A DNA stretch of 14,506 nucleotides from a virus (taxonomy: Duplodnaviria > Heunggongvirae > Uroviricota > Caudoviricetes): positions 1 through 14,506 of IMG/VR virus record IMGVR_UViG_2778261446_000005; one strand, 5' to 3'. A model generated the notes under the pieces. The model worked only from the letters and a program-made list of their open reading frames with translations, searched no databases and was not told the origin of the DNA. Each line of letters opens with the position of its first letter. Positions within the stretch are counted from its first letter, which is position 1. This document shows positions 1 through 12,039 of this stretch, in pieces. The position numbers and the translations under genes are program-made.

Positions 1-192
1 TCAGGAGCATTTCTGATTAACGCCACCGTTAAGAATCCACCCCTCAACAGCTTCACGAAGGTATGATTTGGGGTGGGTTCTGACTGGCTTCGGAAATCCG
101 TGCCGTTTGGTATAGTTCCAGATTGTCTGACGTGATGAAACACCGAGCTTGTTCATCGCTTCTTTCTCAGGAATCAGACTGGTATCGGTCAT
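1..192 (-). CDS. xis: Excisionase-like / AlpA-family small DNA-binding protein (63 aa)
   Basis: Complete ORF with stop at 1..3. Translation has a helix-turn-helix-like core (LGVSSRQTIWNYTKRHGFPKP) typical of small phage excisionase/AlpA regulators. GGAGA Shine-Dalgarno 7 nt upstream of the ATG at 192. Sits at the left end of the leftward early operon, where xis lies in lambdoid phages (int would be beyond the window). Confidence 0.6.
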   Translation of the reverse strand: MTDTSLIPEKEAMNKLGVSSRQTIWNYTKRHGFPKPVRTHPKSYLREAVEGWILNGGVNQKCS

Positions 193-280
193 CTTAATTC
201 TCCAGGCAAAAAGAAACCGCCATATAGCGGCTCTATCAGATATGTACAGGCATCATCGAGTGTGAGGCGGCGTGATTTCA

Positions 281-514
281 TTATTTCCACTCTTCATGTT
301 TGTCAGTGAATGGTTTCTCCATCTCCATCTCTATTAATGCCTTATTCATCTCATTTCGTAACTCTATAGCCATCCTGACGGCTTCAACCTGTGCAGGATG
401 TTGGTTAATTGCTGGAGAATATCGTCGGGAGCGAAGGATTGAGAAAACAAAGATAATGCAAGCAACTATCTGAATTGCATTGCATATTATTGATACAATG
501 TGAATTGCAGCCAT
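281..514 (-). CDS. Small single-pass membrane protein, unknown function (77 aa)
   Basis: ORF from track. N-terminal hydrophobic stretch (IHIVSIICNAIQIVACIIFVFSIL) followed by a charged helical tail. G-rich SD upstream of the ATG at 514. Same strand as the operon. Confidence 0.5.
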   Translation of the reverse strand: MAAIHIVSIICNAIQIVACIIFVFSILRSRRYSPAINQHPAQVEAVRMAIELRNEMNKALIEMEMEKPFTDKHEEWK

Positions 515-526
515 CTGCTACCCCCC

Positions 527-550
527 AATAAAAAACCGCCATCAGGCGGC
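527..550 (-). terminator. Intrinsic terminator (minus strand), stop codon of the upstream gene inside the hairpin loop
   Basis: Minus strand reads GCCGCC-TGAT-GGCGG followed by TTTTTTTATT. Stem is plus 536..540 / 545..549, T-run is plus 527..535. Confidence 0.6.
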
Positions 551-709
551 TTGGTGTTCTTTCAGTTCTTCAATTCGAATATTGGTTACGTCTGCATGCG
601 CTATCTGCGCCCATATCATCCAGTGGTCATAGCAGTCGTTGATGTTCTCCGCTTCGATAACTCTGTTGAATGGTTCTCCATTCCATTCACCTGTGACTCG
701 GAAGTGCAT
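542..709 (-). CDS. Small hypothetical protein (55 aa, MHFRVTGEWNGEPF...EHQAA)
   Basis: Below the 60-aa cutoff of the ORF track; found by manual translation of the minus strand. ATG at 709..707, TGA at 544..542, immediately followed by the terminator. Codon usage looks like neighbouring genes. No clear SD. Confidence 0.4.
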   Translation of the reverse strand: MHFRVTGEWNGEPFNRVIEAENINDCYDHWMIWAQIAHADVTNIRIEELKEHQAA

Positions 710-1300: not shown

Positions 1301-1426
1301 TTTGTGTCCCCCCATTTTATGTACGGGGTAATTATAACACATTGAAATATAGTAATATTTGACGTAGATTTCTTTTGATCTATAAGCGATTTTTTAATGC
1401 TTTTAAGTTATAAATACTTGTTTTCA

Positions 1427-2035
1427 TCACCCATCTTGCTGCGGTGCTACTATTGAAAAGTACTCACACCCTTTAGCCCAAATAGTTTTGATAGTTGTCC
1501 AACTGACTGGAACCTTGATTTCGATTCTCCCGCTGCCGTCACAAGTTTCGCAATCATCATCACCAAAGCATTCCGGGCAGCTTATAAACGTAGTTTCTGA
1601 AAATTCACCGGATAGCACACCCTTAGCGCCGTTCTCAGCGGTTAGTTTCTTCGGCACTATAACCCAACCATCCGGAGTTACCGGAGAGTTGCCCGATGGC
1701 TCGTTCAACTTGCAAGTTTGGCTTACAGGTTTGGCTTCCAGTTCTGCTATGCGCTTTTTTGCTGCTTCCAACTCGCCAAGCAGCGCCAAGACGGTAGCCG
1801 GATTGGCTGCGGCGATGAATTCAGCATTGGCCTGCTGTTCCATTTGGAAATCTTCATCGAAACCGCTTTCTGGATGCGCTCCTTCAATTCTGCAAATGGG
1901 AAGATATCCAACAACGTCACGATGAATTAGCGCATCATCACAATTAAATCGGCTCTCTCCATATTCGAGCGACCACACACCACACGTTGCTTTCTCTGCC
2001 TTTTCACGCAGTGCCTGATAGTCAATCTTGCTCAT
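1427..2035 (-). CDS. Ead/Ea22-like family protein (202 aa)
   Basis: Translation contains the motif ...FIAAANPATVLALLGELEAAKKRIAELEA that I recall as characteristic of ead/Ea22-like prophage proteins; C-terminal Cys-rich region (CPECFGDDDCETCDGSG). ATGA start/stop overlap with the upstream gene at 2032..2035. Confidence 0.5.
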   Translation of the reverse strand: MSKIDYQALREKAEKATCGVWSLEYGESRFNCDDALIHRDVVGYLPICRIEGAHPESGFDEDFQMEQQANAEFIAAANPATVLALLGELEAAKKRIAELEAKPVSQTCKLNEPSGNSPVTPDGWVIVPKKLTAENGAKGVLSGEFSETTFISCPECFGDDDCETCDGSGRIEIKVPVSWTTIKTIWAKGCEYFSIVAPQQDG

Positions 2036-2289
2036 TGGTCAGCCTCCTGGCGAAACATCATGATTGTCAGATCGCCTTTGGTTGCAAGGCGCACGGTTGT
2101 TCCTGGTTCGATGCTGGACAGGTCAAACGCATCGTAAAATTCATTTACTGCTTTTTGTCTACGAGACAGCCTTCTGCGTTTGTCCCATTGCTTTAGCGCA
2201 ACGGAGATAAACCACTGTCCCGTTTTGAACATGATGAATAACCACCCCATCAGGGCGAGTCCGGTGTTTAGAATGCCCAGAATGCTCAT
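2032..2289 (-). CDS. Small membrane protein, unknown function (85 aa)
   Basis: ORF from track. N-terminal hydrophobic helix (ILGILNTGLALMGWLFIMF) then a basic segment (KRRRLSRRQK). ATGA overlap with the upstream gene at 2286..2289. Confidence 0.5.
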   Translation of the reverse strand: MSILGILNTGLALMGWLFIMFKTGQWFISVALKQWDKRRRLSRRQKAVNEFYDAFDLSSIEPGTTVRLATKGDLTIMMFRQEADQ

Positions 2290-2660
2290 GACTGCACTCC
2301 CTTGCGAAGCTGGTCGGCTAACTCGTCACATATGTGCGTCAAAGAGCAAAGTTTGATTGATGGATGTTCTCGCATCATCTCCACACCCTGCGCACGTACT
2401 TCAGCCAGAAAAGCGTCGGTGGCTGGGGTTTCCGTGAAGTTGTCCTCCCAACCGTAGTACTCCTGACGACAGAAGTTATTAAATTCCTTCTCCGACTGTT
2501 TAAGCGCCGCATTCTCCGCTGCCAGCGCCGCGCACTTGGCCTCCGCTTCAGCAAATTTACGCACCAGATATTCAGCGTTTGTTTCGTTAACCTTTAAATC
2601 TCGTGGGATGCATTTACCTTTCAGAAAACCATCCATCTCAATTAGTGACATTTGTTTCAT
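2286..2660 (-). CDS. Hypothetical protein with predicted coiled-coil segment (124 aa)
   Basis: ORF from track. ATGA overlap with the upstream gene at 2657..2660. Contains [24 protein letters not shown]. No family recognised. Confidence 0.5.
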
Positions 2661-2821
2661 TTCTTCCCACTCCGCAGCATCGCATTCAGATATTTGTTTT
2701 GATTCACTGATGGAAACGAGTTTCTCTTAAGCAATTCCTCTCTCGATGGCATTGGCTTTACGCGTTGGCGAATAATCATTTCTGCCGGAAGAATGCCGGG
2801 ATTGTATGCAAGTCCTCTCAT
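2657..2821 (-). CDS. Small hypothetical protein (54 aa; track ORF runs to 2974)
   Basis: Track ORF 2657..2974 overlaps the upstream 98-aa gene out of frame. Internal ATG at 2821 is preceded by GAGGA at 7 nt spacing and lies just downstream of the 98-aa gene stop (2832..2834), so I take the short form ([33 protein letters not shown]...). Confidence 0.4.
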
Positions 2822-2831
2822 GGTAAATTCC

Positions 2832-3128
2832 TCAGTCATTACTGATAGCGCCATAGCGTGAGCGGTAATTACGCAGGCGCGGGTCGATATATTCAGGGAA
2901 GTGGGTATATGTGGCTTTGCGGAATGGTCGGATTGATGTCTGGTAAATTCGCTCTCGTTCTTCTTTCTCTGCAAGCCATATACAGTGGCGAAATTCCTTT
3001 TCCTCTTTCGTTTCCTGCGGTAGCGACATTATCAGGTCGTAGTTTTTTCTGAATTTATCCAGCACCTCCGATACGGAATTGCCGGAACAGCGGCGCGGGT
3101 CATCCGCACCATACAGAGGCGCTGGCAT
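2832..3128 (-). CDS. Hypothetical protein (98 aa); possibly an Abc-type anti-RecBCD protein by position and size only
   Basis: ORF from track, AAGGAT SD upstream of ATG at 3128. Sits just downstream of erf-ssb, where P22 carries abc1/abc2; I cannot confirm sequence similarity from memory. Confidence 0.45.
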
Positions 3129-3151
3129 AATGGAATCCTTATTTTGCTAAT

Positions 3152-3535
3152 CTAGAATGGAATTGAATCGTCGTATTCAGGATGATTTTGATGATTGCTA
3201 CTTTGCTGCTGTTGGCTGTTTCCTGAAGCTGCAAATCCAATCTTCGCATTCAGTAATTCAAGAGTGATTGATTGACCATTTTGCCCCTGATAAACATCAA
3301 CCCTGATGTTTTCTCCGGTAATTTCTACAATGCCACCTTCAACAAGAACACTACGGTAGTAATCCGCTTGCGCTCCCGGCTTGGCAAATACAACGGCGCT
3401 GTAGTTTGTCCATTCTTTCTTTTTTGTCTGGCGATCGTAATACTGAACGCCAGCACGGATGTTGAATCCGATATTTTCCCCGGCCTGAAACTCTCTTGCG
3501 GGTTTGTTTAGTCTTACAGTAATCGAATGTGCCAT
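3152..3535 (-). CDS. ssb: Phage single-stranded DNA-binding protein (SSB-like, 127 aa)
   Basis: Internal ATG at 3535 (M31 of track ORF 3152..3625) overlaps the erf stop as TAATG. C-terminus ends ...PEYDDSIPF, the acidic D-D-x-I-P-F tail of bacterial SSBs. Gln/Ser-rich linker before the tail. Confidence 0.6.
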   Translation of the reverse strand: MAHSITVRLNKPAREFQAGENIGFNIRAGVQYYDRQTKKKEWTNYSAVVFAKPGAQADYYRSVLVEGGIVEITGENIRVDVYQGQNGQSITLELLNAKIGFAASGNSQQQQSSNHQNHPEYDDSIPF

Positions 3536-4140
3536 TAAGCAGCCGCTCCTTCTAATTCGTCTCGTCTGATGTTGTAAACGTCCTGCGCTTTGTGCTGCTC
3601 CGGTGTGCCTTCGAGCATCTTCCACGCTTTGGCGAACGCCTGTTTAAGCTCTTCTACGGTGTTTTTCTGCAATGCTGCGTCAGTGAATGCTTTTAGAACC
3701 TGTTCAGGTGTAGGTGATGGTTTTGATTGCTTTGCTGCTGCGTTCTGCTGATGTTTATGCTCGTCGGTATCTGCATCTTTCGCATCATCAATGCCGAACA
3801 AACCATTGAGGCAATACTTGCGTGCATAAGAGCTTGTAGCTCCAGTAACTTGTGCAGAATCCATTCCTTTCTTGCTTTCTTCCTCTCGTGCAAGAGCGGT
3901 TGCCGTATGACTGTTTTCGCCATCGGTAATAGTTGCCGTGGCTTTCACGTAATACCGATCACCAATCAACACAACTTCATCGCTGATTGATAAAAACAGA
4001 CCATTCAGTAACGGCTTAACGCCTTCAAGAATGTCTTCGCAGCTTCTGTATTTATATTTACCGAATGAGTTGTACTGATTCTTTGGCGCATTCAGATTCT
4101 CCTGAATGGCTGCCAGTCTTGCGTAAAATTCTTTGCTCAT
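3535..4140 (-). CDS. erf: Erf-family single-strand annealing recombinase (P22 Erf-like, 201 aa)
   Basis: Translation from the ATG at 4140 begins MSKEFYARLAAIQENLNAPKNQYNSFGKYKYRSCEDILEGVKPLL..., matching my recollection of P22 Erf. Track ORF 3535..4170 begins at an upstream TTG. C-terminal third diverges, as expected for mosaic Erf tails. Confidence 0.8.
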   Translation of the reverse strand: MSKEFYARLAAIQENLNAPKNQYNSFGKYKYRSCEDILEGVKPLLNGLFLSISDEVVLIGDRYYVKATATITDGENSHTATALAREEESKKGMDSAQVTGATSSYARKYCLNGLFGIDDAKDADTDEHKHQQNAAAKQSKPSPTPEQVLKAFTDAALQKNTVEELKQAFAKAWKMLEGTPEQHKAQDVYNIRRDELEGAAA

Positions 4141-4150
4141 ATGTTTGTTC

Positions 4151-4321
4151 TCAGAATGGACATTCCCCAAGGAAATAACGCTGATTTAATACTTCGACTC
4201 GGGACAAATTAAGGCATACCCGCATTCCTTCGCGGTCGCCATTATGGCGATACCAGAGAGCTTTCTGCGTGTACATGCGTCTCTGTAACTTGCTCTCCTT
4301 CACTGTGGTTGCAAGTGACAT
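4151..4321 (-). CDS. Small basic protein (56 aa), arf-like by position
   Basis: Manual translation. ATG at 4321 with strong AAGGAGA SD; stop TGA at 4153..4151, 11 nt before the erf start. MSLATTVKESKLQRRMYTQKALWYRHNG... Lies where P22 has arf, but identity is not verified. Confidence 0.4.
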   Translation of the reverse strand: MSLATTVKESKLQRRMYTQKALWYRHNGDREGMRVCLNLSRVEVLNQRYFLGECPF

Positions 4322-4400
4322 GAATATCTCCTTCGTTGCCGATTAAATCTTTCATCTGACGAATGAATTCTTCGTCTGACCAGTTATCTGTGAAACTCAT
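4242..4400 (-). CDS. Small acidic ORF (52 aa), overlaps the 4151..4321 ORF in another frame
   Basis: Manual translation. ATG at 4400 overlaps the kil-like stop as ATGA, with AGGA SD. MSFTDNWSDEEFIRQMKDLIGNEGD... Overlaps the next ORF by 80 nt, so one of the two may be non-coding. Confidence 0.3.
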   Translation of the reverse strand: MSFTDNWSDEEFIRQMKDLIGNEGDIHVTCNHSEGEQVTETHVHAESSLVSP

Positions 4401-4549
4401 TTCCTGCGATACCACGGAAGGTTGATAGCTGATTTCATCGCTTTATTTGCTTCAAGCCACATTTTTGAATCACCAATAAATCGGGCTATTACTGCTTTGT
4501 TCTGTGCAGCACGAAGCATCTGGTGATTGATGGCTATTTCATTGCGCAT
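4397..4549 (-). CDS. kil: Kil-like small host-killing protein (FtsZ inhibitor family, 50 aa)
   Basis: Manual translation MRNEIAINHQMLRAAQNKAVIARFIGDSKMWLEANKAMKSAINLPWYRRK. The motif IA-FIGD-KM matches what I recall of lambda Kil. GAGG SD. Directly downstream of cIII, as in lambda and P22. Confidence 0.55.
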   Translation of the reverse strand: MRNEIAINHQMLRAAQNKAVIARFIGDSKMWLEANKAMKSAINLPWYRRK

Positions 4550-4665
4550 AATAAGACCTCAACTCTTTTCCATCCGTCACGTAATTTACGGGTGATTCGT
4601 TCAAGTAAAGATTCATTTAGTTGGAAGGCACCCATGCGAGCGCCTCCCGCGATTGCGTAAATCAT
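4534..4665 (-). CDS. cIII: CIII-like protease (FtsH) inhibitor (43 aa)
   Basis: Manual translation MIYAIAGGARMGAFQLNESLLERITRKLRDGWKRVEVLLCAMK. The ESLLERITRKLRDGWKR core matches the lambda CIII amphipathic helix. AAGGAA SD upstream of ATG at 4665. Confidence 0.85.
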   Translation of the reverse strand: MIYAIAGGARMGAFQLNESLLERITRKLRDGWKRVEVLLCAMK

Positions 4666-4689
4666 GGGTGGTTCCTTATGTTGGTTTTA

Positions 4690-5658
4690 TTAGTAGGTTA
4701 TTTTTGTTGCGAATACTTCGCCTTTTACGATGGCTGTTATGATATTTTTAGCAACATCTTCTGATGCGCCAACCTTGATAAGGTCAGCAAGTATTTTGTT
4801 ATTTACTTCTTTCCGGTGAGCTTTATCCTTTGCTCTACGCTCTTCTTCGTCCTTGATTCTTTTTTCTTCTGCTATTCTGGCTTGCTCTTTTTCTTCAGCC
4901 TCGCGCCGGATTCGTTCTGCCTCCTCCTGTGCTTTTCGGCGTTCTGCTTCAATTGCTGCCTGCTTTTCTCTTTCAGCTCGTTCTGCTGCCTCTTTTGCTT
5001 CGCGCTGTGCTCGTCGCTCGGCTTCAATGCGTTCACGCTCTGCACGTTCCGCTGCGGCCTTAGCTTCTGCTTCTCGCCTTGCTGCTGCTTCAATTTCGGC
5101 TTTTGCCTTTGCTTCGGCTTCTGCTCTGGCTTTCTCTTCAGCTTCTTTTTTTAAGCGTTCTTCATGCTCTCGCTTTTCCTGCTCCGCTTTGAGTCTTGCC
5201 TCTTCTCTTTGGCGGTCAAATTCGCGATCCATCAAAATCGCTATTTCATGGTCAGACTCAATTTGCTTTGCGAGAGCTTCAGCTGCTGCCTTAGCTTCTT
5301 CTTCGGCTTTAATCCGTGCCTGTTCCTCCTCATAATCAGTAAGAGGCTGGCGCGCCTTGGCTTTCAGTTCATCAAGGCGATCGCGCACTGTCTTGCGGTT
5401 GGCATCAATTAGCTTTGGAATTTCCTTCAGTTCAGCAACAAGGTCTTTGCCAAGACCATCGAGATATGTTTTCGTCTGCGCAACTTTATACGCCAGAGAA
5501 GCGATCTCCTTTCTGCCCTTTGCCGTTGTGATATCAGGCACAAAGGACATAACTTCACGTTCAACCTTTTGGAGAATTTCTTCAATCTGGTCGGCAGACT
5601 GAAATACAGTCATTGCATTTGCTTTTTCAATAACAACTAAATCTGTTACTTCACTCAT
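4690..5658 (-). CDS. Unknown protein (322 aa): about 110-aa N-terminal domain, about 170-aa Glu/Ala/Lys/Arg-rich predicted single alpha-helix or coiled coil, about 40-aa C-terminal domain
   Basis: Track ORF 4690..5754; I place the start at the ATG at 5658 (MSEVTDLVVIEK...) because it is 7 nt after a GGAGG SD and directly after an intrinsic terminator. Central region is repetitive EAK/ERA-type sequence (e.g. EEKARAEAEAKAKAEIEAAARREAEAKAAAERAERERIEAERRAQREAKEAAERAEREKQAAIEAERRK). Confidence 0.7.
   Translation of the reverse strand: MSEVTDLVVIEKANAMTVFQSADQIEEILQKVEREVMSFVPDITTAKGRKEIASLAYKVAQTKTYLDGLGKDLVAELKEIPKLIDANRKTVRDRLDELKAKARQPLTDYEEEQARIKAEEEAKAAAEALAKQIESDHEIAILMDREFDRQREEARLKAEQEKREHEERLKKEAEEKARAEAEAKAKAEIEAAARREAEAKAAAERAERERIEAERRAQREAKEAAERAEREKQAAIEAERRKAQEEAERIRREAEEKEQARIAEEKRIKDEEERRAKDKAHRKEVNNKILADLIKVGASEDVAKNIITAIVKGEVFATKITY
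4850..5340 (-). repeat. Low-complexity coding repeat encoding the E/A/K/R-rich helix
   Basis: Plus strand is pyrimidine-rich with reiterated gcttc/tgctgc/ctcttc units. It generates two spurious plus-strand ORFs (4816..5154, 4853..5335) rich in Cys/Ser/Phe/Leu. Confidence 0.6.
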
Positions 5659-5670
5659 ATATCCTCCATC

Positions 5671-5700
5671 AAAAAAAATTGCCCTCACACGGGAGGGCAA
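5671..5700 (-). terminator. Intrinsic terminator (minus strand) immediately upstream of the ER/K-rich gene
   Basis: Minus strand reads TTGCCCTC-CCGTGT-GAGGGCAA followed by TTTTTTTT (plus 5671..5678 is the A-run). Not followed by a T-run on the plus strand, so it is strand-specific. Confidence 0.7.
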
Positions 5701-5791
5701 AGAAGATTTCCAATAATCAGAACAAGTCGGCTCCTGTTTAGTTACGAGCGACATTGCTCACATAGCAGACTCGTAAATCTGCTATAGGCGC

Positions 5792-5950
5792 TTATTCGCA
5801 TCGCATGACAACATCAAATTTTTCGAGATTACTTTGTCGCAACAATCCTTCTTCGACGCGGTCAGCTTTTCTATAATTATCAAATTCGAAATGTTTAATT
5901 ACTTCTTTCGTTTCTCGATCTATAACTTCAACAATGTATTTCTTATTCAT
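5792..5950 (-). CDS. Small hypothetical protein (52 aa, MNKKYIVEVIDRETKEVIKHFEF...)
   Basis: Manual translation; below the ORF-track cutoff. ATG at 5950..5948 overlaps the upstream gene stop (TAATG). Stop TAA at 5794..5792. Confidence 0.45.
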   Translation of the reverse strand: MNKKYIVEVIDRETKEVIKHFEFDNYRKADRVEEGLLRQSNLEKFDVVMRCE

Positions 5951-6246
5951 TACTCATCACCTATGGCTTTTCTGATTGCTGCGAGACCTTTATTAACAGC
6001 TCCATACCATTCTGGATATGTTGTCGTTGTTCTATTTTTGGATTGCTTAAGTAATAACTGAAGTGCTTCGAGAAGGTCAGGTGCTGCCGCTATTAGATTG
6101 GCATCTTCAATGCATTGAACTTCCTCACAGATTGCAATATACGAACGCCAGCCTGCGCCATTTTCAAGTGAGTCTGCCTGGATGATTTTAATCTCATCGC
6201 CATCCATCATTATTTCCCATTTACCTTCAGTACCTTTAAATTCCAT
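5950..6246 (-). CDS. Hypothetical protein (98 aa) with an Ea22-like IAAAP-LLEAL motif
   Basis: Track ORF 5950..6270; start moved to the ATG at 6246 (MEFKGTEGKWEIMMDGDEIKII...), which has a CAGAGG SD at 7 nt. Contains ...NLIAAAPDLLEALQLLLKQ, resembling the motif in the 1427..2035 protein. Confidence 0.5.
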   Translation of the reverse strand: MEFKGTEGKWEIMMDGDEIKIIQADSLENGAGWRSYIAICEEVQCIEDANLIAAAPDLLEALQLLLKQSKNRTTTTYPEWYGAVNKGLAAIRKAIGDE

Positions 6247-6268
6247 GTTAGCCTCTGTTGTTAGTGCC

Positions 6269-6294
6269 AAAAATAAAGGCCACCATCAGGCAGC
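6269..6294 (-). terminator. Probable intrinsic terminator (minus strand), stop codon of the upstream gene in the loop
   Basis: Minus strand reads GCTGCC-TGAT-GGTGGC followed by CTTTATTTTT. The 6-bp stem needs two G-U pairs that exist only in the minus-strand RNA. Same architecture as the 527..550 terminator. Confidence 0.45.
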
Positions 6295-6537
6295 CTTGTT
6301 GTAAATGTTGCAGGTATCAAGTAAGTAATTAGATGGAGCGCCATAAATTATGAATTCATCGTTTGTAGGGTCAATCTCCATCTCTTGGCCTATTGCCATT
6401 CTTGCGTCAGTGTCATCAGCGGCGAAGCATAAAACAGCCCACGCCCCCATTGTTTTAAAAAGAACTGCAATTGGCTGTGGTTTTACTGAATTTGCGTTAG
6501 CGCGAAAATCACAAATCGCACTTTCATGAAATTCCAT
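6286..6537 (-). CDS. Hypothetical protein (83 aa)
   Basis: ORF from track. GAGGTGA SD upstream of ATG at 6537. MEFHESAICDFRANANSVKPQPIAVLFKTMGAWAVL... No family recognised. Confidence 0.5.
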   Translation of the reverse strand: MEFHESAICDFRANANSVKPQPIAVLFKTMGAWAVLCFAADDTDARMAIGQEMEIDPTNDEFIIYGAPSNYLLDTCNIYNKAA

Positions 6538-6653
6538 ATCTCACCTCAATCGTAATAAGCTGGAATTGATTTTCCGCGTTGCTTCTGGCGGCCTGAACAG
6601 GTCACACCCATTTCACTGTGTGGCTTGCTGTAATAAATTCGGTTAGTTCAGAC

Positions 6654-6676
6654 AATAAAAAACCCACCGAAGTGGG
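6654..6676 (-). terminator. Intrinsic terminator within the early-left operon (tL1-like)
   Basis: Minus strand reads CCCAC-TTCG-GTGGG followed by TTTTTTATT, starting immediately after the TAG stop (6679..6677) of the first gene downstream of N. Confidence 0.7.
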
Positions 6677-7015
6677 CTATGACCATTTTTTATTTGGATT
6701 TCGTTGGTGAGCGTGATTAACAACTCTGTGCATTACATCCTCATATTTTTCATCTTCAATTTTTTCGACATCGCGAGGAAATGGTGTTGCTAATGCTTTG
6801 TCAACTTTGTCCATTGGGTCTTCATTAATCTTATATTCAGGACCGTCATCTATAGCATTAAATCCAGGTGTTACACCGTTTTTTAATGCATATGCTATCC
6901 TCTTTTCCCATCTCGCTATTCTCCTCCTGTCTCGAGATGTAAGACCTCTATCAGATACTTTTCTGTTTTGTCCGCGGTCAGGATTAACATAAATAGTCTT
7001 TTTCACCATAAGCAT
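6677..7015 (-). CDS. Hypothetical basic/acidic protein, first gene downstream of N (about 110 aa)
   Basis: Track ORF 6677..7021 begins at a TTG; ATGs at 7015 and 7009 are the likely starts (MLMVKKTIYVNPDRGQNRKVSDRG...). No SD, 2 nt after the N stop, suggesting translational coupling. Occupies the slot lambda uses for ral. Confidence 0.5.
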   Translation of the reverse strand: MLMVKKTIYVNPDRGQNRKVSDRGLTSRDRRRIARWEKRIAYALKNGVTPGFNAIDDGPEYKINEDPMDKVDKALATPFPRDVEKIEDEKYEDVMHRVVNHAHQRNPNKKWS

Positions 7016-7017
7016 AC

Positions 7018-7323
7018 TCAATAAGCACCGTACGGTAGTTTACTGTACAATTTTATTTTTTGGACTGCATGTATTTTGTTTCCTAACGGGTTTGAATCTT
7101 TGTAATAAATACTTCTATTTTTTCGAACGACTTCTTCTTTCTTCTTGCAGCAAAGGCTTCCTAGTGATGCTGCTTTGTCTGCTCTGACGCAACCAGAGAG
7201 CTTTAGCGCAATTTTTCGCGCCAGTGCTTCATTACTGCGTCGCTCGGCAATAAGTTCTGCTCTGCGAGCTTTGTAGCGGCTTTTTGCCGTACCTTTGGAT
7301 TCTTTCCAGACAATGGTTACCAT
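7018..7323 (-). CDS. N: Antitermination protein N, phage phi21 type (101 aa)
   Basis: Translation from the ATG at 7323 begins MVTIVWKESKGTAKSRYKARRAELIAERR, the arginine-rich motif I recall for the phi21 N boxB-binding peptide. AAGGAGA SD 6 nt upstream. The in-frame ATG at 7353 has no SD. Located just downstream of pL and nutL. Confidence 0.85.
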   Translation of the reverse strand: MVTIVWKESKGTAKSRYKARRAELIAERRSNEALARKIALKLSGCVRADKAASLGSLCCKKKEEVVRKNRSIYYKDSNPLGNKIHAVQKIKLYSKLPYGAY

Positions 7324-7433
7324 GATGGTCTCCTTTAAGTGGCTTTGGCGCATGACGCGTCGAGGTGCTTATCTTCTCGATCGCTGTCTTGCAGCTGCAA
7401 TTCGCGCCATCCCCAAAACCACTCAAGTTCTGG

Positions 7434-7474
7434 TCTCAACGGTTAGGTTGAGAGTCCGTCGATGTTAAAGAGCC
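7434..7474 (-). promoter_or_regulatory. nutL: boxA (7464..7474) and boxB hairpin (7434..7453)
   Basis: Minus strand reads GCTCTTTAACA (boxA consensus) then, 10 nt later, TCTCAAC-CTAACC-GTTGAGA (7-bp stem, 6-nt loop). The loop CUAACC is shared with the nutR hairpin at 8584..8601. Confidence 0.7.
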
Positions 7475-7514
7475 TGCCAATCTGTTCCGTTTGGCTTCCA
7501 GCGTCCTGCTGATG

Positions 7515-7580
7515 GCTTAAATTTAAGACTTCTTAATTTATTGGTCAAGTGCATTTTTGAAGAAAACTTAATTTTATGGG
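7515..7580 (-). promoter_or_regulatory. pL promoter with OL operator sites
   Basis: Minus strand has TTGACC (plus 7543..7548), a 17-nt spacer and TAAATT (plus 7520..7525). Overlapping palindromic P22-type operator half-sites AATTAAGAAGTCTTAAATT, and a second AATTAAG...CTTCAAAA site upstream of the -35. Confidence 0.6.
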
Positions 7581-7613
7581 CGTGAATTTAGTTTATCCTT
7601 GATTTTTAACGGG

Positions 7614-7637
7614 AAATAAAAAAGGGGCGAAAGCCCC
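7614..7637 (-). terminator. Intrinsic terminator immediately after the c2 stop
   Basis: Minus strand reads GGGGC-TTTC-GCCCC followed by TTTTTATTTCCC. The c2 stop TAA is at 7640..7638. No T-run follows the hairpin on the plus strand. Confidence 0.75.
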
Positions 7638-8288
7638 TTAAGGAAGGTTTGCTAGCTTGGCATCAACGACAACGCCAATGATTTTACAGTTCCCATTGAT
7701 TTCAATCATTGGGTATTGTGGATTGAGTGGTTTCAGGAATTTTCTACCGGCATCAATAACTAACTTTTTGAATGTCGCCTCGTTTTCTCCTTCAAGTTTG
7801 GCGACTACCAGCTTTCCATTACGTGGTTCGACTTCTGGGTCGACGAGAATAATCATCCCCTCAGGAATACTCAGTCCTGCCGGGGCAGTCATTGAATCGC
7901 CTTTAACGTCGAGCCAAAAAGAGTCTTCAGAACAATCTACCGTTGTGTCGTACCAGTTATCTATTGCACGCCTATGATATGGCTCTACAGCTTCCATCCA
8001 ACATCCTGCGCTTACCCAACTAATTAGAGGATACGAACCTCTTGGATCATGCCTGCTGTGATAGGCAATGTTTGAAAGACTATCCTCTCCTTTCAACAGG
8101 TAATCAGGGGAGCACTGCAAAGCCTTGGCTAAGGCCAATAGGTTTTCGCCATTGGGCTCAGTTTCAGATCGCTCCCATTGGGAAATAGCAACATTAGACA
8201 CGCCAACCATCTTGCCAAGGGCAGCCTGCCTAATCTTGAGTTCTTTTCTGCGAGCGCGAATACGCTCACCCATCAGTTGTGTATTCAT
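7638..8288 (-). CDS. c2: Prophage repressor, P22 c2 type (CI-like, HTH plus LexA-like S24 autocleavage domain, 216 aa)
   Basis: Translation MNTQLMGERIRARRKELKIRQAALGKMVGVSNVAISQWERSETEPNGENLLALAKALQCSPDYLL... matches my recollection of P22 C2 almost throughout. C-terminal domain has the G-D-S-M and K-L motifs of RecA-cleavable repressors. Divergently oriented to cro. Confidence 0.9.
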   Translation of the reverse strand: MNTQLMGERIRARRKELKIRQAALGKMVGVSNVAISQWERSETEPNGENLLALAKALQCSPDYLLKGEDSLSNIAYHSRHDPRGSYPLISWVSAGCWMEAVEPYHRRAIDNWYDTTVDCSEDSFWLDVKGDSMTAPAGLSIPEGMIILVDPEVEPRNGKLVVAKLEGENEATFKKLVIDAGRKFLKPLNPQYPMIEINGNCKIIGVVVDAKLANLP

Positions 8289-8360
8289 AGTTAAGACATC
8301 TTAAATAAACTTGACTTAAGATTCCTTTGGTGGATAATTTAAGTGTTCTTTAATTTCGGA
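8289..8360. promoter_or_regulatory. OR operator region with pR (rightward) and pRM (leftward)
   Basis: Three P22-type operator palindromes: AGTTAAGACATCTTAAAT (about 8290..8307), CTTAAGATTCCTTTGG, and ATTTAAGTGTTCTTTAAT (about 8337..8354). pR -35 TTGACT at 8311..8316 and -10 GATAAT at 8333..8338. c2 ATG at 8288 abuts the leftmost operator (leaderless-type arrangement). Confidence 0.7.
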
Positions 8361-8368
8361 GCGAGTCT

Positions 8369-8554
8369 ATGTACAAAAAAGATGTTATTGACCACTTCGG
8401 AACCCAGCGTGCTGTTGCTAAAGCACTAGGCATTAGCGATGCAGCAGTCTCTCAGTGGAAAGAAGTTATCCCAGAGAAAGACGCCTATCGATTGGAAATC
8501 GTTACAGCTGGCGCCCTGAAGTATCAAGAAAGTGCTTACCGCCAAGCGGCATAA
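8369..8554 (+). CDS. cro: Cro repressor, P22 type (61 aa)
   Basis: Translation MYKKDVIDHFGTQRAVAKALGISDAAVSQWKEVIPEKDAYRLEIVTAGALKYQESAYRQAA matches my recollection of P22 Cro. GGAG SD upstream. Confidence 0.85.
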   Translation: MYKKDVIDHFGTQRAVAKALGISDAAVSQWKEVIPEKDAYRLEIVTAGALKYQESAYRQAA

Positions 8555-8560
8555 GCAAAT

Positions 8561-8601
8561 TGCTCTTTAACAGTTCTGGCCTTTCACCTCTAACCGGGTG
8601 A
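8561..8601 (+). promoter_or_regulatory. nutR: boxA (8561..8572) and boxB hairpin (8584..8601)
   Basis: TGCTCTTTAACA matches the boxA consensus. Eleven nt later, TCACC-TCTAACCG-GGTGA forms a hairpin (alternatively CACCU-CUAACC-GGGUG with a G-U pair), sharing the CUAACC loop with nutL. Confidence 0.7.
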
Positions 8602-8669
8602 GCAAACATCAGCGGCAAATCCATTGGGTGTGCCGCTATAACTCAATATCAATATAGGAAAATTAACAA

Positions 8670-8966
8670 ATGGCACAAGCAAGCTACAGCAAGCCAACAC
8701 AGCGAGAAATTGATCGCGCTGAAACTGATTTACTCATCAACCTGTCAACGCTTACCCAGCGCGGTCTGGCAAAGATGATTGGCTGTCATGAATCGAAGAT
8801 AAGCAGAACGGACTGGAGATTTATTGCTTCGGTTCTGTGTGCTTTCGGAATGGCATCAGACATCAGTCCGATTAGCAGGGCTTTTAAGTATGCGCTTGAT
8901 GGACTCGCAAAGAAAAAATCCCCGGCTGCCACCGAGGATTCTGAGCAAATTGATATGCAATTCTGA
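8670..8966 (+). CDS. cII: CII-like transcriptional activator (98 aa)
   Basis: Same architecture as lambda CII; C-terminus KKKSPAATEDSEQIDMQF resembles lambda KKRPAATERSEQIQMEF. AGGAAA SD upstream. Position between cro/nutR and O. Confidence 0.75.
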   Translation: MAQASYSKPTQREIDRAETDLLINLSTLTQRGLAKMIGCHESKISRTDWRFIASVLCAFGMASDISPISRAFKYALDGLAKKKSPAATEDSEQIDMQF

Positions 8967-8989
8967 GGTCATTACTGGATCAATCCACA
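8908..8989 (-). ncRNA. Candidate oop-like antisense RNA overlapping the 3' end of cII
   Basis: Minus strand has a terminator inside the cII 3' end: TCCTCGG-TGGCA-CCGGGGA (7-bp stem with one G-U pair, pairs only in the minus-strand RNA) followed by TTTTTTCTTT (plus A-run 8912..8918). About 80 nt upstream on the minus strand is a -10-like CATAAT (plus 8996..9001) with a weak -35. Size and position mirror lambda oop. The 5' end is inferred. Confidence 0.45.
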
Positions 8990-8998
8990 GGAGTAATT

Positions 8999-9160
8999 AT
9001 GACAAAACGTCGTAAGAAATACCAGGAAAAAGAAGAGATTCGACACCCTGATTCACCTGAGGGATTAGTGGTAGCCGCAGCAAATAACAGGGCGTTCGCA
9101 GAGCGCCTTGTTGGTGTTTACAGACTAGCCAAAGCAGGAGTGAAACATGGGCGTCGTTAA
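8999..9160 (+). CDS. Small basic ORF between cII and O (53 aa, MTKRRKKYQEKEEIRHPDSPEGL...)
   Basis: Manual translation. AGGAG SD 6 nt upstream of the ATG. Stop overlaps the O start by 14 nt. Below the track cutoff. Confidence 0.35.
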   Translation: MTKRRKKYQEKEEIRHPDSPEGLVVAAANNRAFAERLVGVYRLAKAGVKHGRR

Positions 9161-9977
9161 GTTAGCTGATTACAGGCCTCAACTGGAGGTCGTGGAGCAT
9201 CGCGTGGCAGAACTCGAAGATGGCTACACTCGGACTGCAAACACACTGTTAGAAGCCGCCATGCTTTCTGGACTTACTCTACATCAGTTACTGATTGTTA
9301 TGGCTGTGTGGCGCAAGACATACGGTTACAACAAAAAAATAGATTGGATCGGAAACGAACAGTTCGCTGAACTCACTGGCATGGCACCAACCAAATGCTC
9401 TACCGCCAAAAACGAGCTTATCAGAATGGGAGTTCTCATTCAGGTGGGGCGTCAAGTTGGTATGAATACAAACATTTCCGAGTGGAAAACGAAAGTTAAC
9501 GGATTCGGTAAAACATTTACTAATTCGGTAAAACAAACCTTCACCAAATCGGTAAAAAGCAATTTACCGAATCAGTCAAACACAAAAGACAATATACAAA
9601 AGACAATAAATACAAATACCCCCTTACCCCCTAACGGGGGCGGCGATGGGCAGGTTAAACCTGAACGTCGCAAGGCAGAACGAATCGACTACGAATCCTT
9701 CCTGAACGCCTACAACACCGAAGTCGGTGACAGACTTCCACACGCTGTTGCGGTCAACGAGAAACGCAAACGCCGCCTGAAGAAAATCATCCCGCAACTG
9801 AAAACGCCAAACGTGGACGGTTTCAGAGCGTATGTCAGGGCGTTTGTACATCAGGCCAAGCCGTTTTACTTCGGAGACAACGACACTGGCTGGACGGCAG
9901 ATTTTGATTACCTGCTGAGGGAAGATTCGTTAACGGGAGTACGGGAAGGGAAGTTTGCAGACAGGGGGATTGCATGA
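9147..9977 (+). CDS. Replication initiator, lambda O-like (P22 gene 18 type, 276 aa)
   Basis: N-terminal domain is clearly homologous to lambda O as I recall it ([15 protein letters not shown] vs LDDGYARLSNMLLEA; WRKTYGYNK; NISEW). AGGAG SD. Contains the iteron origin internally. C-terminal domain differs from lambda O, consistent with pairing to a DnaB-type helicase rather than lambda P. Confidence 0.8.
9500..9640 (+). repeat. Replication origin inside the O-like gene: iterons, AT-rich region, GC hairpin
   Basis: Three direct copies of (A/T)TCGGTAAAA(C/A) at about 9503..9514, 9523..9534 and 9548..9559, plus an inverted TTACCGAAT at 9564..9572. AT-rich tract 9577..9620. Then CCCCC-TAAC-GGGGG at 9627..9640. 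Layout parallels lambda ori. Confidence 0.7.
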
Positions 9978-11350
9978 GACAGGATATCGAAGCGAGCGTT
10001 ATCGGTGGCCTGCTGATTGGTGGATTAACTCCAACCGCCAGCGACGTTCTGGCAACGCTGGAGCCGGAAGCGTTTTCAATTCCGCTCTACCGGAAAGCCT
10101 TCGAGGTTATCCGCAAGCAGGCGAGAAACAGAAACCTAATCGATGCGCTGATGGTTGCCGAGGCGTGCGGAGAGGAGCATTTCACGTCAATCCTGATGAC
10201 CAGCAAAAACTGCCCGAGTGCCGCAAACCTGAAGGGATATGCCGGAATGGTCGCGGATAACTATCACCGCCGTCTGGTGCTGGAAATCATAGATGAAATG
10301 CGTGAACCAATCCAAAGCGGAACCATCGACGCATCGAGTCAGGCGATGGATGAACTTGTAAAACGTCTCTCAGCCATCAGAAAACCCCGTGACGAGGTTA
10401 AACCTGTACGGTTAGGGGAAATCATCACCGACTACACTGACACGCTTGACAGGCGTCTGAGGAACGGAGAAGAGTCCGATACCCTGAAGACCGGAATCGA
10501 AGAACTTGATGCCATCACCGGAGGGATGAACGCGGAAGACCTGGTGATAATCGCTGCTCGTCCTGGTATGGGGAAAACCGAACTGGCGCTGAAGATTGCC
10601 GAAGGCGTTGCAAGCCGCGTTATTCCTGGTTCTGACGTCCGGCGCGGGGTATTGATTTTCTCAATGGAAATGAGCGCATTGCAGATTGCAGAGCGAAGCA
10701 TTGCCAACGCCGGGAGGATGTCGGTTAGTGTGCTGCGAAATCCTGCAGCGATGGATGACGAAGGCTGGGCGCGCGTTGCTAACGGCATGAGTCAGCTTGC
10801 AGATTTGGATGTATGGGTAGTCGATGCCTCGCGGTTATCGGTAGAAGAAATTCGCTCAATCGCAGAACGGCACAAACAGGAAAATCCAAACCTGTCACTC
10901 ATCATGGCGGATTATCTTGGCCTGATTGAGAAGCCGAAAGCAGATCGCAACGACCTCGCAATTGCTCACATCTCCGGAAGCCTGAAGGCGATGGCGAAAG
11001 ACCTGAAAACGCCCGTTATCTCCCTGAGTCAGCTTTCGCGCGATGTTGAGAAGCGACCAAACAAACGCCCGACAAACGCAGATTTGCGTGATTCAGGAAG
11101 CATTGAGCAGGACGCAGACTCAATCATCATGCTCTATCGGGAAGCGGTATATGACGAGAACAGTAGCGCCGCGCCATTTGCTGAAATCATCGTGACGAAA
11201 AACCGTTTTGGCTCGCTTGGTACAGTTTACCAGCGGTTCTGTAACGGACACTTTGTTGCATGTGACCAGGATGAAGCCAGACAGATTTGCACAGCATCAA
11301 ATGCACCTGCTGCGCGTGGCAGACGATATGCACAAGGGGCTGACGTATGA
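9974..11350 (+). CDS. DnaB-family replicative helicase (P22 gene 12 type, 458 aa)
   Basis: ATGA overlap with the O-like gene. N-terminal DnaB-like domain; Walker A motif in [15 protein letters not shown]; RecA-like C-terminal domain with the DnaB-type [12 protein letters not shown] and IIMLYRE motifs. Confidence 0.85.
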
Positions 11351-11375
11351 CCATCTACATCACTGAGCTAATAAC

Positions 11376-11407
11376 AGGCCTGCTGGTAATCGCAGGCCTT
11401 TTTATTT
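11376..11407 (+). terminator. Intrinsic terminator between the helicase and ninB (tR2-like)
   Basis: AGGCCTGC-TGGTAATC-GCAGGCCT (8-bp stem) followed by TTTTTATTT. Same position as lambda tR2, upstream of the nin region. Confidence 0.8.
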
Positions 11408-11423
11408 GGGGGAGAGGGAAGTC

Positions 11424-11864
11424 ATGAAAAAACTAACCTTTGAAATTCGATCTCCAGCACATCAGCAAAACGCTATTCACGCGGTACAGCAAATTCTTCC
11501 AGACCCAACCAAACCAATCGTAGTAACCATTCAGGAACGCAACCGCAGCTTAGACCAGAATCGAAAGCTTTGGGCTTGCCTTGGTGACGTCTCTCGTCAG
11601 GTTGAATGGCATGGTCGCTGGCTGGATGCAGAAAGCTGGAAGTGTGTGTTTACCGCAGCATTAAAGCAGCAGGATGTTGTTCCTAACCTTGCCGGGAATG
11701 GCTTTGTGGTAATAGGCCAGTCAACCAGCAGGATGCGTGTAAGCGAATTTGCGGAGCTATTAGAGCTTATACAGGCATTCGGTACAGAGCGTGGCGTTAA
11801 GTGGTCAGACGAAGCGCGACTGGCTCTCGAATGGAAAGCGAGATGGGGAGACAGGGCGGCATGA
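11424..11864 (+). CDS. ninB: NinB (Orf-family recombination mediator)
   Basis: Translation from the ATG at 11424 ([53 protein letters not shown]...) matches my recollection of lambda NinB. Track ORF starts 6 codons upstream. Confidence 0.85.
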
Positions 11865-12037: not shown

Positions 12038-12039
12038 CA

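Follow-up and report, generated by a model that had tools for sequence, protein, structure and literature searches.

The idea that lambdoid phages carry short conserved boundary sequences is old; where PMC3029335 takes it up, Susskind & Botstein 1978 and Clark et al. 2001 (HK620) are cited for it, and half of lambdoid mosaics have flanking residual homology (PMC3945230). Rho-independent terminators have been annotated inside the operons of HK140, mEp234, phage L and P22, and the phage L paper describes intra-operon terminators of such a kind as common, with roles that are not known (PMC8022706). The influence of translation on a phage terminator was assessed in an engineered reporter series on tR2 (Li et al. 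2016, PMC4824070). Termination efficiency fell from ~90% to <10% when the stop codon was moved to 5 bp before tR2, and the loss of termination was relieved by removing translation.

We compared these systems with a window of 14,506 nucleotides, i.e., the whole stretch of DNA that was analysed (IMG/VR virus record IMGVR_UViG_2778261446_000005, positions 1 to 14,506), which is the early region of a mosaic lambdoid phage with its leftward early operon on the minus strand. Two minus-strand hairpins in this operon, terminator 1 at site 1 (526..552) and terminator 2 at site 2 (6269..6297), are predicted to be Rho-independent terminators. We consider it probable, at roughly 70%, that they act as separate conserved terminators of the leftward operon, which overlap the ends of accessory genes, serve as mosaic joints and leave Ala-Ala at the protein ends as a by-product.

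Terminator 1 was identified by sequence reading, a terminator scan, RNA folding and annotation in relatives. Direct reading of the minus strand gave ...CAC CAA GCC GCC TGA TGGCGG TTTTTT ATT at the end of a 55-aa gene (542..709, minus), which corresponds to lambda orf55/lambdap35 and 434 ORF55 (phrog_676, E 7e-40) and whose product ends ..KEHQAA. The segment GCCGCCTGATGGCGG (550..536, minus) comprises the 5' arm, the UGAU loop and the 3' arm of the hairpin and is followed by a T-run at 535..530; the stop codon TGA (544..542) lies in the loop. The stem-loop, AAGCCGCC-UGAU-GGCGGUUU, occupies 552..533 on the minus strand, where the terminator scan reported 8 pairs (5 G-C) and a 4-nt loop, then TTTTTTATT. 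RNA folding returned the expected hairpin, with a minimum free energy (MFE) of -13.9 kcal/mol over 51 nt.

Terminator 2 was identified by the same sequence reading, scan and folding, together with annotation in mEp234. The minus strand reads ...AAC AAG GCT GCC TGA TGGTGG CC TTTATTTTT at the end of an 83-aa gene (6286..6537, minus) of the VT2-Sakai H0090 / mEp234 gp34 type, which has no assigned function (phrog_2471, E 8e-61) and encodes a protein ending ..NIYNKAA. Here, GCTGCCTGATGGTGG (6294..6280, minus) contains both arms and the UGAU loop ahead of the T-run, the stop codon (6288..6286) is again in the loop, and the T-rich tail extends as far as 6269. The stem-loop, AAGGCUGCC-UGAU-GGUGGCCUU (6297..6276, minus), is followed by UAUUUUU; the scan reported it with 9 pairs (5 G-C), a 4-nt loop and then TATTTTT, and its 51-nt fold was the expected hairpin (MFE -14.0 kcal/mol). 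Both sites have the G+C-rich stem and U-tract of an intrinsic terminator, and both are co-directional with the minus-strand genes of the leftward operon, at whose 3' ends they lie. The original prediction, that two unrelated small genes end alike with Ala-Ala-stop inside a terminator hairpin, was borne out by this reading; the positions it gave (533..555 and 6276..6298) fall on the right sites and agree with ours to within 2-5 bases. Homology between the 55-aa and 83-aa genes, which had been named as what would speak against it, was not found: BLASTP gave E = 0.98 and the genes belong to different PHROG families (phrog_676 vs phrog_2471).

Neither element is new; the same sequences have already been annotated as terminators in relatives. 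HK140 (22739..22761) and phage L (21949..21985) carry the terminator 1 sequence with a rho-independent terminator annotation, and mEp234 (25668..25694) carries the terminator 2 sequence with the same annotation. In P22, the terminator 1 sequence is t'I (23398..23418), which the annotation places on the other strand, at the 3' end of aI RNA. These elements share with ours the sequence, the position (the end of the orf55/lambdap35 homologue or of the 83-aa gene), the hairpin with its T-run and the intra-operonic location; the element itself does not differ, and only P22 places the site 1 hairpin on the other strand. The annotations are in silico predictions, and it is from them and from the anatomy of the sites that we infer terminator function here. 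We dropped the possibility that site 1 ends an antisense RNA as in P22, since no cII/C1-type TTGC-N6-TTGC promoter was found near site 1 in the window.

The conserved block was found in 171 (site 1) and 124 (site 2) GenBank phage records. When orf55 ends were sampled irrespective of the hairpin, 118 of 137 carried the exact site 1 hairpin and the remainder had single disruptive changes. At the ends of ral and the 83-aa gene, 63 of 115 site 2 alleles were intact and 43 of 115 belonged to a crippled lambda-type haplotype with further decay. This crippled version, AAAGCTGCC-TGAT-AGTGGCC, is carried by ~37% of ral genes, lambda's own included, suggesting that the site 2 terminator is dispensable in some lineages; its MFE structure (-4.7 kcal/mol) contains no hairpin, two substitutions having abolished the fold in lambda. 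The ral-end hairpin of lambda is not known to be one of the classical tL1, tL2a-d and tL3 sites. Two-sided covariation that would support selection on structure was almost absent, the one case being a site 2 variant (n=2) in which two wobble pairs have become Watson-Crick pairs.

Each hairpin is the core of a conserved block of 30-50 nt that is flanked on either side by unrelated DNA in different phages. The block around terminator 2 spans 49 nt (6254..6302, minus), with a minimal shared core of ~33 nt, and is common to the ral 3' end of lambda, HK544, Sf6, CUS-3 and others. In lambda-type ral and the 83-aa gene, which are unrelated, the last four codons (N-K-A-A), the stop and the terminator are identical, because the boundary terminator extends some codons into the gene on its 5' side. 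The gene on the 3' side of terminator 2 (5950..6270, minus; probable ATG start 6246; phrog_1273) is one of at least three alternative modules at this position in other phages. Counts of ral / 83-aa gene with the downstream types D1, D2 and D3 were 12/2, 7/3 and 4/4, i.e., each upstream allele was seen with each downstream allele. At site 1, most relatives lose homology exactly where the T-run ends, and related loci gave 69 alignments with starts at 525-527; over both sites, alignment endpoints cluster at 525-527, 6254, 6268-6270 and 6300-6302. At least six different downstream sequences follow the orf55 hairpin, and the upstream extent of its block varies, P22 sharing only 525..589. Ahead of excisionase genes, the same hairpin forms the end of several more unrelated genes; at two loci, L072 and L090, the upstream genes are unrelated, the hairpin is the same and the downstream DNA is 93% identical.

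These blocks resemble the boundary sequences of Susskind & Botstein and of Clark et al. in size, in their position at gene boundaries between unrelated flanks and in the occurrence of all combinations of flanking alleles; they differ in that the block is a terminator, reaching 4-5 codons into the upstream gene. A conserved boundary or joint for mosaic recombination had also been proposed in the original prediction. Each site is one, as judged from its unrelated flanks and from reassortment; a single junction common to the two is not supported. As read from sequence comparison, the four-combination pattern shows that joints exist, and it is equally compatible with recombination within the block and with selection acting on what illegitimate events produce. 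Recombination at the blocks could proceed via short stretches of homology on which phage or host recombinases act; alternatively, only those recombinants that keep whole 'gene + terminator' units may survive.

A third similar hairpin, GAGCCGC-UAUA-UGGCGGUUU followed by CUUUUU (203..233, minus), lies upstream of an AlpA-type excisionase gene (1..192, minus), the first gene of the int-xis module downstream of the terminators. Hairpin 3 and terminator 1 have in common a 10-nt 3'-arm repeat, ATGGCGGTTT, which bounds a gene + hairpin unit of ~319 bp (214..532) containing a 77-aa accessory gene (281..514, minus; phrog_15342). Phages whose terminator 1 is immediately followed by the excisionase gene lack this unit. 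Such genes are similar to morons, or accessory cassettes (Juhala et al. 2000), in that they are small, dispensable, equipped with their own 3' terminator and present or absent as units; they differ in lying inside the early operon with no dedicated promoter found. We did not assign them moron status, as the terminator is present but the defining promoter was not found: the window scan gave no promoter-like site upstream of the ORFs at 542..709, 6286..6537 and 281..514. Terminator-like sites were enriched in the window (32 vs 15.4 +/- 4.8 in shuffles), and promoter-like sites were not (10 vs 20.5). At both sites, TGATG places an ATG over the stop codon. The ORF that it opens at site 1 (405..542) overlaps the well-supported 77-aa gene in another frame, the one at site 2 has just 12 codons, and the sequence on the 3' side varies among phages; we rejected a coupled restart and regard this overlap as incidental.

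The likeness of the two sites could also mean that one 'Ala-Ala-TGA-in-loop' terminator was the ancestor of both and of hairpin 3, having been copied by recombination to several places in the leftward operon, where the copies would now act as dispersed short homology for the exchange of cassettes; we consider this rather unlikely. That the motif exceeds chance held against shuffled sequence, with two exact matches vs 0.07 expected even with <=2 mismatches, a circular figure in that the pattern was derived from both sites; against a terminator-aware null, the excess was marginal. When 64 unique tetraloop terminators from unrelated phage DNA were compared in pairs, 0.2-0.4% of the pairs were equally alike in arm + loop, and the 15 pairs in the window lead to an expectation of ~0.03-0.06 equally similar pairs, which is not compelling for a pattern recognised after the fact. 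The unusual feature is the stop codon in the loop. In the control scan, the GCCGCC stem was generic in phage terminators, and none of the 122 terminators with this stem had a TGAT loop (UNCG-type loops, 73/122); TGAT was rejected as a generally favoured loop on such stems. A long ORF stopped at the first loop base in 1 of 98 unique terminators. This rare arrangement, found twice here, speaks for one portable cassette, as do the demonstrable movement of the site-1-type hairpin between unrelated genes near xis, the 3' arm and T-run that hairpin 3 shares with site 1, and a gapped alignment that reaches slightly into the flanks (ACA[C/A]CAAG upstream, TTT.TT.TTGG downstream). However, the likeness is limited to ~33 nt of constrained sequence, and the stems of sites 1 and 2 differ in length and pair types. 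The best local alignment between the sites covers 36 columns with two gaps and finds no similarity past the hairpin and T-run. We rejected its score as special since it is unremarkable beside real terminators: of 320 unrelated terminator regions, 0.9% aligned to site 2 no worse than site 1 did, and 21% of control regions matched site 1 equally well, the latter scores being inflated by a control set enriched in GCCGCC stems. Furthermore, the 137 orf55 ends and 115 ral/83-aa-gene ends, all sampled irrespective of the hairpin, included no chimeric, intermediate or other-site allele. One reused terminator cassette with a shared junction, as originally suggested, is unsupported: the likeness is confined to the hairpin, falls in the ~1% tail of unrelated terminators and has no cross-locus alleles. 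The resemblance is most likely a shared terminator architecture combined with the stop-in-loop arrangement; a distant common ancestry is conceivable. Convergence is plausible because the stem is generic and because the site 1 hairpin also occurs in a very different setting, between baseplate-type genes (L028). An IMG/VR search for the motif gave at least 120 matches and yielded contexts rather than absolute frequencies; several matches inside ORFs and without a T-run are chance hits, as expected for a pattern that is short relative to the collection size. Two TGAT-loop stops in one window are somewhat more than convergence predicts.

Other roles for the hairpins or for Ala-Ala itself were also weighed. 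The hairpins might mainly be sRNA 3' modules or mRNA-stabilising ends (an Hfq-type stem + U-tail) rather than intra-operon terminators. In lambda, the Hfq-bound sRNA PreS/LPR1 has its 3' end at tL2a, a terminator ~150 nt past ral (bioRxiv 10.1101/2024.10.31.621285); the P22 annotation of the site 1 hairpin as an RNA 3' end, on the other strand, points the same way. A promoter-like site scoring 10/12 at 6374..6347(-) precedes the site 2 hairpin by ~50 nt and could give an RNA of ~70 nt, but it lies in coding sequence, so that its conservation is uninformative, and the lack of enrichment of promoter-like sites also tells against such a role. No Rfam family matched anywhere in the window at gathering thresholds, and a known RNA family at site 1 or 2 was rejected. 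We regard a main role as sRNA or mRNA ends as very improbable. Selection of the C-terminal Ala-Ala at the protein level, e.g., as an ssrA-like ..AA signal for breakdown by ClpXP with the hairpin incidental, appears extremely improbable. ClpX recognises C-terminal ..LAA, and the 55-aa and 83-aa proteins, Ral and several other hairpin-capped proteins all end -AA. Nevertheless, AA is preceded by Gln, Lys, Asp or Ser rather than by a hydrophobic residue, the first Ala has given way to Asp, Thr or Ser in ~10% of orf55 alleles, and intact alleles keep the pairing and T-run at the DNA level, which a protein signal does not need. In addition, a gene gains AA merely by fusion to the hairpin: a 114-aa gene ends ..LRKD-TAA in 12 loci, and in L072, where the hairpin contains the end of its homologue, this end reads ..LRDAA-TGA. 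Such a change of the normal end on fusion to the hairpin indicates that Ala-Ala is a by-product of reading the GC-rich arm, and a protein-level signal was accordingly disfavoured.

On the preferred reading, that of separate terminators joined to accessory-gene ends, Ala-Ala-stop would be the ribosome's reading of the hairpin, in which the G+C-rich 5' arm is decoded as GCY GCC and the UGAU loop supplies the first in-frame stop, TGA. On the sequence comparisons, genes then carry Ala-Ala ends as a by-product of their junction with the hairpin and not as a selected protein feature. The hairpins would halt transcription that the phage antitermination system has not made termination-resistant, and downstream modules would be insulated in the lysogen: xis/int in the case of site 1 and kil/recombination genes in that of site 2. 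As the stop codon is part of the hairpin, a closely trailing ribosome should cover the 5' arm and thereby suppress termination, and the hairpins would act mainly on untranslated or uncoupled transcripts. The sites are similar to the tR2 series of Li et al. in that the stop codon lies within ribosome-footprint distance, here inside the hairpin itself, and in that termination is expected only if translation is absent or lagging; they differ in being phage elements known from sequence rather than an engineered reporter, with antitermination as a second control layer. A further proposal, which we consider quite unlikely, is that the 'GCY-GCC-TGA-in-loop' hairpin is a portable, translation-gated terminator module that spreads among the accessory-gene cassettes of lambdoid early-left operons by recombination within the hairpin, leaves an Ala-Ala tail on any gene it caps and works as a conditional insulator. 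A ribosome at the stop would melt or mask the hairpin, allowing coupled transcripts to read through, and untranslated or spurious prophage transcripts would be stopped before xis/int or kil.

The finding is an ordinary one, with little import beyond tidy annotation. It provides a clean sequence-level example of the old idea that short conserved boundary sequences lie at lambdoid mosaic joints, the boundary here being a terminator. It also advises caution to annotators, as C-terminal residues common to small phage proteins can be a terminator scar and not a protein motif. If the translation-gated reading were true, these hairpins would be natural ribosome-controlled insulators inside antiterminated operons.

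The window comes from a mosaic lambdoid phage and corresponds to its early control region. Its closest GenBank relatives (HK544, mEp213, CUS-3, Sf101 and Sf6) align to it in 6–14 separate pieces at 93–97% identity, and coverage by any single record is at most 55%. Gene order was assigned after the HK544 annotation, with cro, cII, O, P and the nin genes on the plus strand and a leftward early operon on the minus strand. The operon comprises the repressor (7638..8288), N-like and Nun-like ORFs, accessory genes, recombination genes and an AlpA-type excisionase (1..192), and contains both hairpins studied here, site 1 (552..533) and site 2 (6297..6276). The Nun-like ORF (6677..7021(-); phrog_5632, E 5e-71; C-terminus ..HQRNPNKKWS) is of the type of the HK022 transcription-termination (exclusion) factor, and an N-like ORF (7018..7353(-); phrog_271, E 1e-31) lies directly 5' of it; the presence of both genes together behind pL in one phage deserves attention.

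On the minus strand, site 1 reads ...GAA CAC CAA GCC GCC TGA TGGCGG TTTTTT ATT, with the 15-mer at 550..536 and a stop codon (544..542) that terminates a 55-aa ORF (542..709) of the lambda orf55 (lambdap35) type. Site 2 reads ...TAC AAC AAG GCT GCC TGA TGGTGG CC TTTATTTTT; its 15-mer lies at 6294..6280, and its stop codon (6288..6286) terminates an 83-aa ORF (6286..6537). A consensus terminator scan identified AAGCCGCC-TGAT-GGCGGTTT (8 pairs) at site 1 and AAGGCTGCC-TGAT-GGTGGCCTT (9 pairs) at site 2, and RNA folding of 51-nt pieces recovered the same two hairpins at -13.9 and -14.0 kcal/mol, respectively. As originally predicted, both Ala codons form the inner 5' arm and TGA lies in the tetraloop at each site, and the two capped genes are unrelated (protein BLASTP E = 0.98; phrog_676 versus phrog_2471). 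Both sites thus have the sequence features of predicted intrinsic terminators.

These elements are known and already annotated as predicted terminators, and the earlier observation was correct. In HK140, the lambdap35 homologue ends at the site-1 sequence, which bears the annotation 'rho-independent terminator'. Phage L has a terminator annotation for this sequence, and P22 places it on the other strand under the name t'I, where it forms the 3' end of the aI RNA activated by C1. In mEp234, a rho-independent terminator is annotated at the site-2 sequence, where it overlaps the 3' end of the 83-aa homologue, gp34. Queries of 45 bases spanning the hairpins matched 171 (site 1) and 124 (site 2) GenBank phage records. 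Lambda has an identical site-1 hairpin directly 5' of the xis start codon and a TTGC-N6-TTGC box, which we take to be the cII box of pI.

The resemblance of the two sites was compared with chance. The degenerate 15-mer occurred exactly twice in the window against 0.07 expected in shuffles (up to two mismatches allowed); however, this test is circular, as the pattern was derived from both sites, and it ignores their terminator nature. Therefore, we built nulls from real terminators. From ~1 Mb of unrelated phage contigs, we took 64 unique tetraloop terminators. Of their pairs, 0.2% had the same loop and at most 1 of 6 arm positions different, and 0.4% had at most one difference over 10 positions; the six tetraloop terminators in the window form 15 pairs, giving ~0.03–0.06 equally similar pairs expected. 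Local alignment of the 81-nt regions around the two sites scored 29, which was attained against site 2 by 0.9% of 320 unrelated terminator regions and against site 1 by 21%, the control set being enriched for GCCGCC stems. In a control scan for GCCGCC-NNNN-GGCGGC-TTTT, TTCG, TCCG, TGCG and TACG loops accounted for 73 of 122 hairpins and TGAT for none. The stop codon of control GCCGCC terminators usually lay 5' of the stem, and of 98 unique terminators only one had a long ORF ending at the first loop base. Placement of the stop codon in the loop is the least ordinary trait of sites 1 and 2; their resemblance is genuine and somewhat unusual, but too weak to require a common origin.

Site 1 is a landmark before int-xis. 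Alignments between the window and IMG/VR loci started at 525–527, just beyond the T-run, in 69 cases among the loci listed, with other ends at 589 (17 cases; within orf55, as in P22) and 764 (34 cases). Among the loci listed, the orf55 hairpin leads into at least six unrelated downstream sequences: the lambda pI/xis region, a sequence with GGTTCGATTCC, a 114-aa gene, the window's 77-aa gene, a directly joined AlpA-type xis and one further sequence. GGTTCGATTCC resembles a tRNA T-arm and hence would mark an attachment-site region. In many prophages, such as L006 and L014, the site-1 T-run is followed by the tRNA T-arm-like ..CCTGATTTGCAGGTTCGATTCCC.., suggesting that the attachment site adjoins the orf55 terminator in those phages.

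In the related loci L021 and L116, ...GCCTGGAGAATTAAG ATG ACC GAT ACC, leading into the AlpA excisionase, comes straight after the orf55 hairpin. In the window, the GCCTGGAGAATTAAG-AlpA start instead follows a third, similar hairpin, GAGCCGC-TATA-TGGCGGTTT at 233..214. The ~319 bp between site 1 and the AlpA junction (within 203..532(-)) consist of the 77-aa ORF (281..514; phrog_15342) and this third hairpin; the unit is missing from L021 and L116 and is flanked by the 10-nt direct repeat ATGGCGGTTT, i.e., the 3' arms of the two terminator hairpins. In L119, the third-hairpin block follows a different gene, the unrelated 114-aa gene. A promoter scan of the window found no own promoter for the accessory genes at the sites; therefore, moron identity was rejected for these units.

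The Ala-Ala ending itself appears to be a by-product of the joint to the hairpin. The 114-aa gene (MSDLAMK...) ends in ...RISELRKD-TAA in 12 loci, and its homologue in L072 ends in ...RINELRDAA-TGA, the stop codon lying inside GCCGCC-TGAT-GGCGGC-TTTTTT 5' of an AlpA-type xis. Between L072 and L090, the upstream genes are unrelated (at 53%, their identity is no higher than between unrelated sequences), the hairpin is the same and the downstream DNA is 93% identical, whereas L072 and L066 have only the hairpin, T-run and ACGCCTGGAGATAAT in common. At least four unrelated genes, ending in ..HQAA, ..RDAA, ..DEQAA and ..FEQAA, are capped by a site-1-type hairpin just 5' of excisionase genes. When 137 orf55 ends were sampled via an anchor outside the hairpin, 118 were exact and the remainder had single changes (e.g., GAC, ACC or TCC for the first GCC), so that the first Ala is not strictly conserved. 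The unrelated phage L028 carries the same hairpin between baseplate-type genes; therefore, the hairpin can arise independently. L132 (IMG/VR contig 2924398230_000002, ~8271(-)) has the GCCGCC/GGCGGC stem, the T-run and the downstream excisionase-type gene of L072 and L090, and its loop, ATCA, is TGAT in exact inverse complement, as though the hairpin had been turned round.

At site 2, ral and the 83-aa gene have one 3' end. Lambda ral ends in ...AAC AAC AAA GCT GCC TGA TAGTGGCCTTTATTTTTGGCATAAATAACAGA and the window's 83-aa gene in ...TAC AAC AAG GCT GCC TGA TGGTGGCCTTTATTTTTGGCACTAACAACAGA. In ral-carrying phages (lambda, HK544, CUS-3, Sf6 and Sf101), only 6254..6302 of the window was matched by BLAST, whereas in 83-aa-gene phages (VT2-Sakai H0090, 933W-type Stx phages and mEp234) the match spanned the whole gene. 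Therefore, the two genes share the last four codons (N-K-A-A), the stop codon and the terminator, and nothing else. The proposed tabulation of genes ended by the motif, an IMG/VR scan for the motif followed by NNTT (at least 120 stretches), gave 135 instances among the matches listed: 72 orf55 ends, 28 ral ends, 12 83-aa-gene ends and 23 others. Downstream modules were classified from the sequence 40–140 nt 3' of site 2. Among the matches listed, D1 (the lambda type, with the PreS region) followed ral and the 83-aa gene 12 and 2 times, D2 7 and 3 times, and D3 (the window's type) 4 and 4 times, indicating that the flanks reassort at site 2. Divergence starts downstream at the T-run end or ~20 nt further and upstream ~9 nt 5' of GCTGCC; thus, the minimal shared block is ~33 nt, essentially the terminator.

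The lambda-type module includes the Hfq-bound sRNA PreS/LPR1, whose 3' end is tL2a, ~150 nt beyond the ral-end hairpin (bioRxiv 10.1101/2024.10.31.621285). A protein gene (5950..6270; phrog_1273) unrelated to the lambda 33904..34087 module lies downstream of site 2 in the window, which therefore lacks PreS there. Inside the 83-aa gene, ~50 nt 5' of the hairpin, is a strong promoter-like site, TTGACC-16-CATAAT (6374..6347(-)); its score of 10/12 was reached at only one other window site, at the expected pR position. This putative promoter could yield an RNA of ~70 nt ending at the site-2 terminator. Another strong terminator-like hairpin (5679..5700(-); TTGCCCTC-CCGTGT-GAGGGCAA + T8) falls within the first 25 codons of a mechanically listed 354-aa ORF (4690..5754(-)). 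The real start of this gene is probably 3' of the hairpin, because the annotated mEp234 homologue is 32 codons shorter and has a terminator immediately 5' of it. Position 5759 is an endpoint of many alignments between the window and related loci.

The site-2 hairpin varies among lineages. Of 115 ral and 83-aa-gene ends sampled via anchors outside the hairpin, 63 had an intact stem and 43 the lambda haplotype AAAGCTGCC-TGAT-AGTGGCC, in which two pairs are broken and RNA folding gave no fold; additional decay (AGTGACC) was also seen. At the lambda ral end (L002 6570..6620(-); lambda ~34070..34120), the two substitutions, AAAG.. and ..TAGTGG, abolish the fold. Three ends had intermediate alleles, and two (e.g., L298) the rare allele GGCTGCC-TAAT-GGCAGCT, with both wobble pairs converted to Watson–Crick pairs and a TAA stop. 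Therefore, the predicted terminator appears to be kept in many lineages and dispensable in that of lambda. To our knowledge, the lambda ral-end hairpin is not among the classical tL sites, probably because it is dispensable in this lineage.

The original prediction viewed the common gene end as a shared boundary sequence, possibly a recombination joint or a reused terminator cassette. The boundary part held for each site separately, each being a conserved mosaic boundary block with reassorted flanks; a single junction or cassette serving both did not. We consider a single reused cassette at sites 1 and 2 unlikely: flank homology is absent, no cross-locus alleles occurred among the 137 orf55 and 115 ral/83-aa-gene ends, and the similarity lies within the ~1% tail of unrelated terminators. 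This origin retains some weight because stop-in-TGAT-loop hairpins are otherwise rare. Both blocks show the two testable traits of mosaic boundary sequences, namely a short conserved core between non-homologous flanks and reassortment of those flanks. The blocks could serve as short homologies for recombination, as in the boundary-sequence hypothesis, which PMC3029335 cites from Susskind & Botstein and Clark et al.; half of the borders in lambdoid mosaics retain homology (PMC3945230), which is consistent with recombination at the blocks. Alternatively, breakpoints may cluster at the blocks only because recombinants keeping intact 'gene + terminator' units survive.

The hairpins would terminate leftward transcription that is unmodified by the phage antitermination system, and in lysogens this may shield xis/int behind site 1 and the early genes behind site 2. 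Such roles of terminators inside operons are also discussed by the phage L authors, who call them unknown (PMC8022706). Because the stop codon sits in the loop, a ribosome that trails RNA polymerase closely would be expected to mask the 5' arm, thereby suppressing termination. At tR2, termination fell from ~90% to <10% when the stop codon was placed 5 bp 5' of the hairpin, and it recovered once translation was removed (Li et al., PMC4824070). Overall, sites 1 and 2 are of low interest, and are a neat illustration of a known principle.
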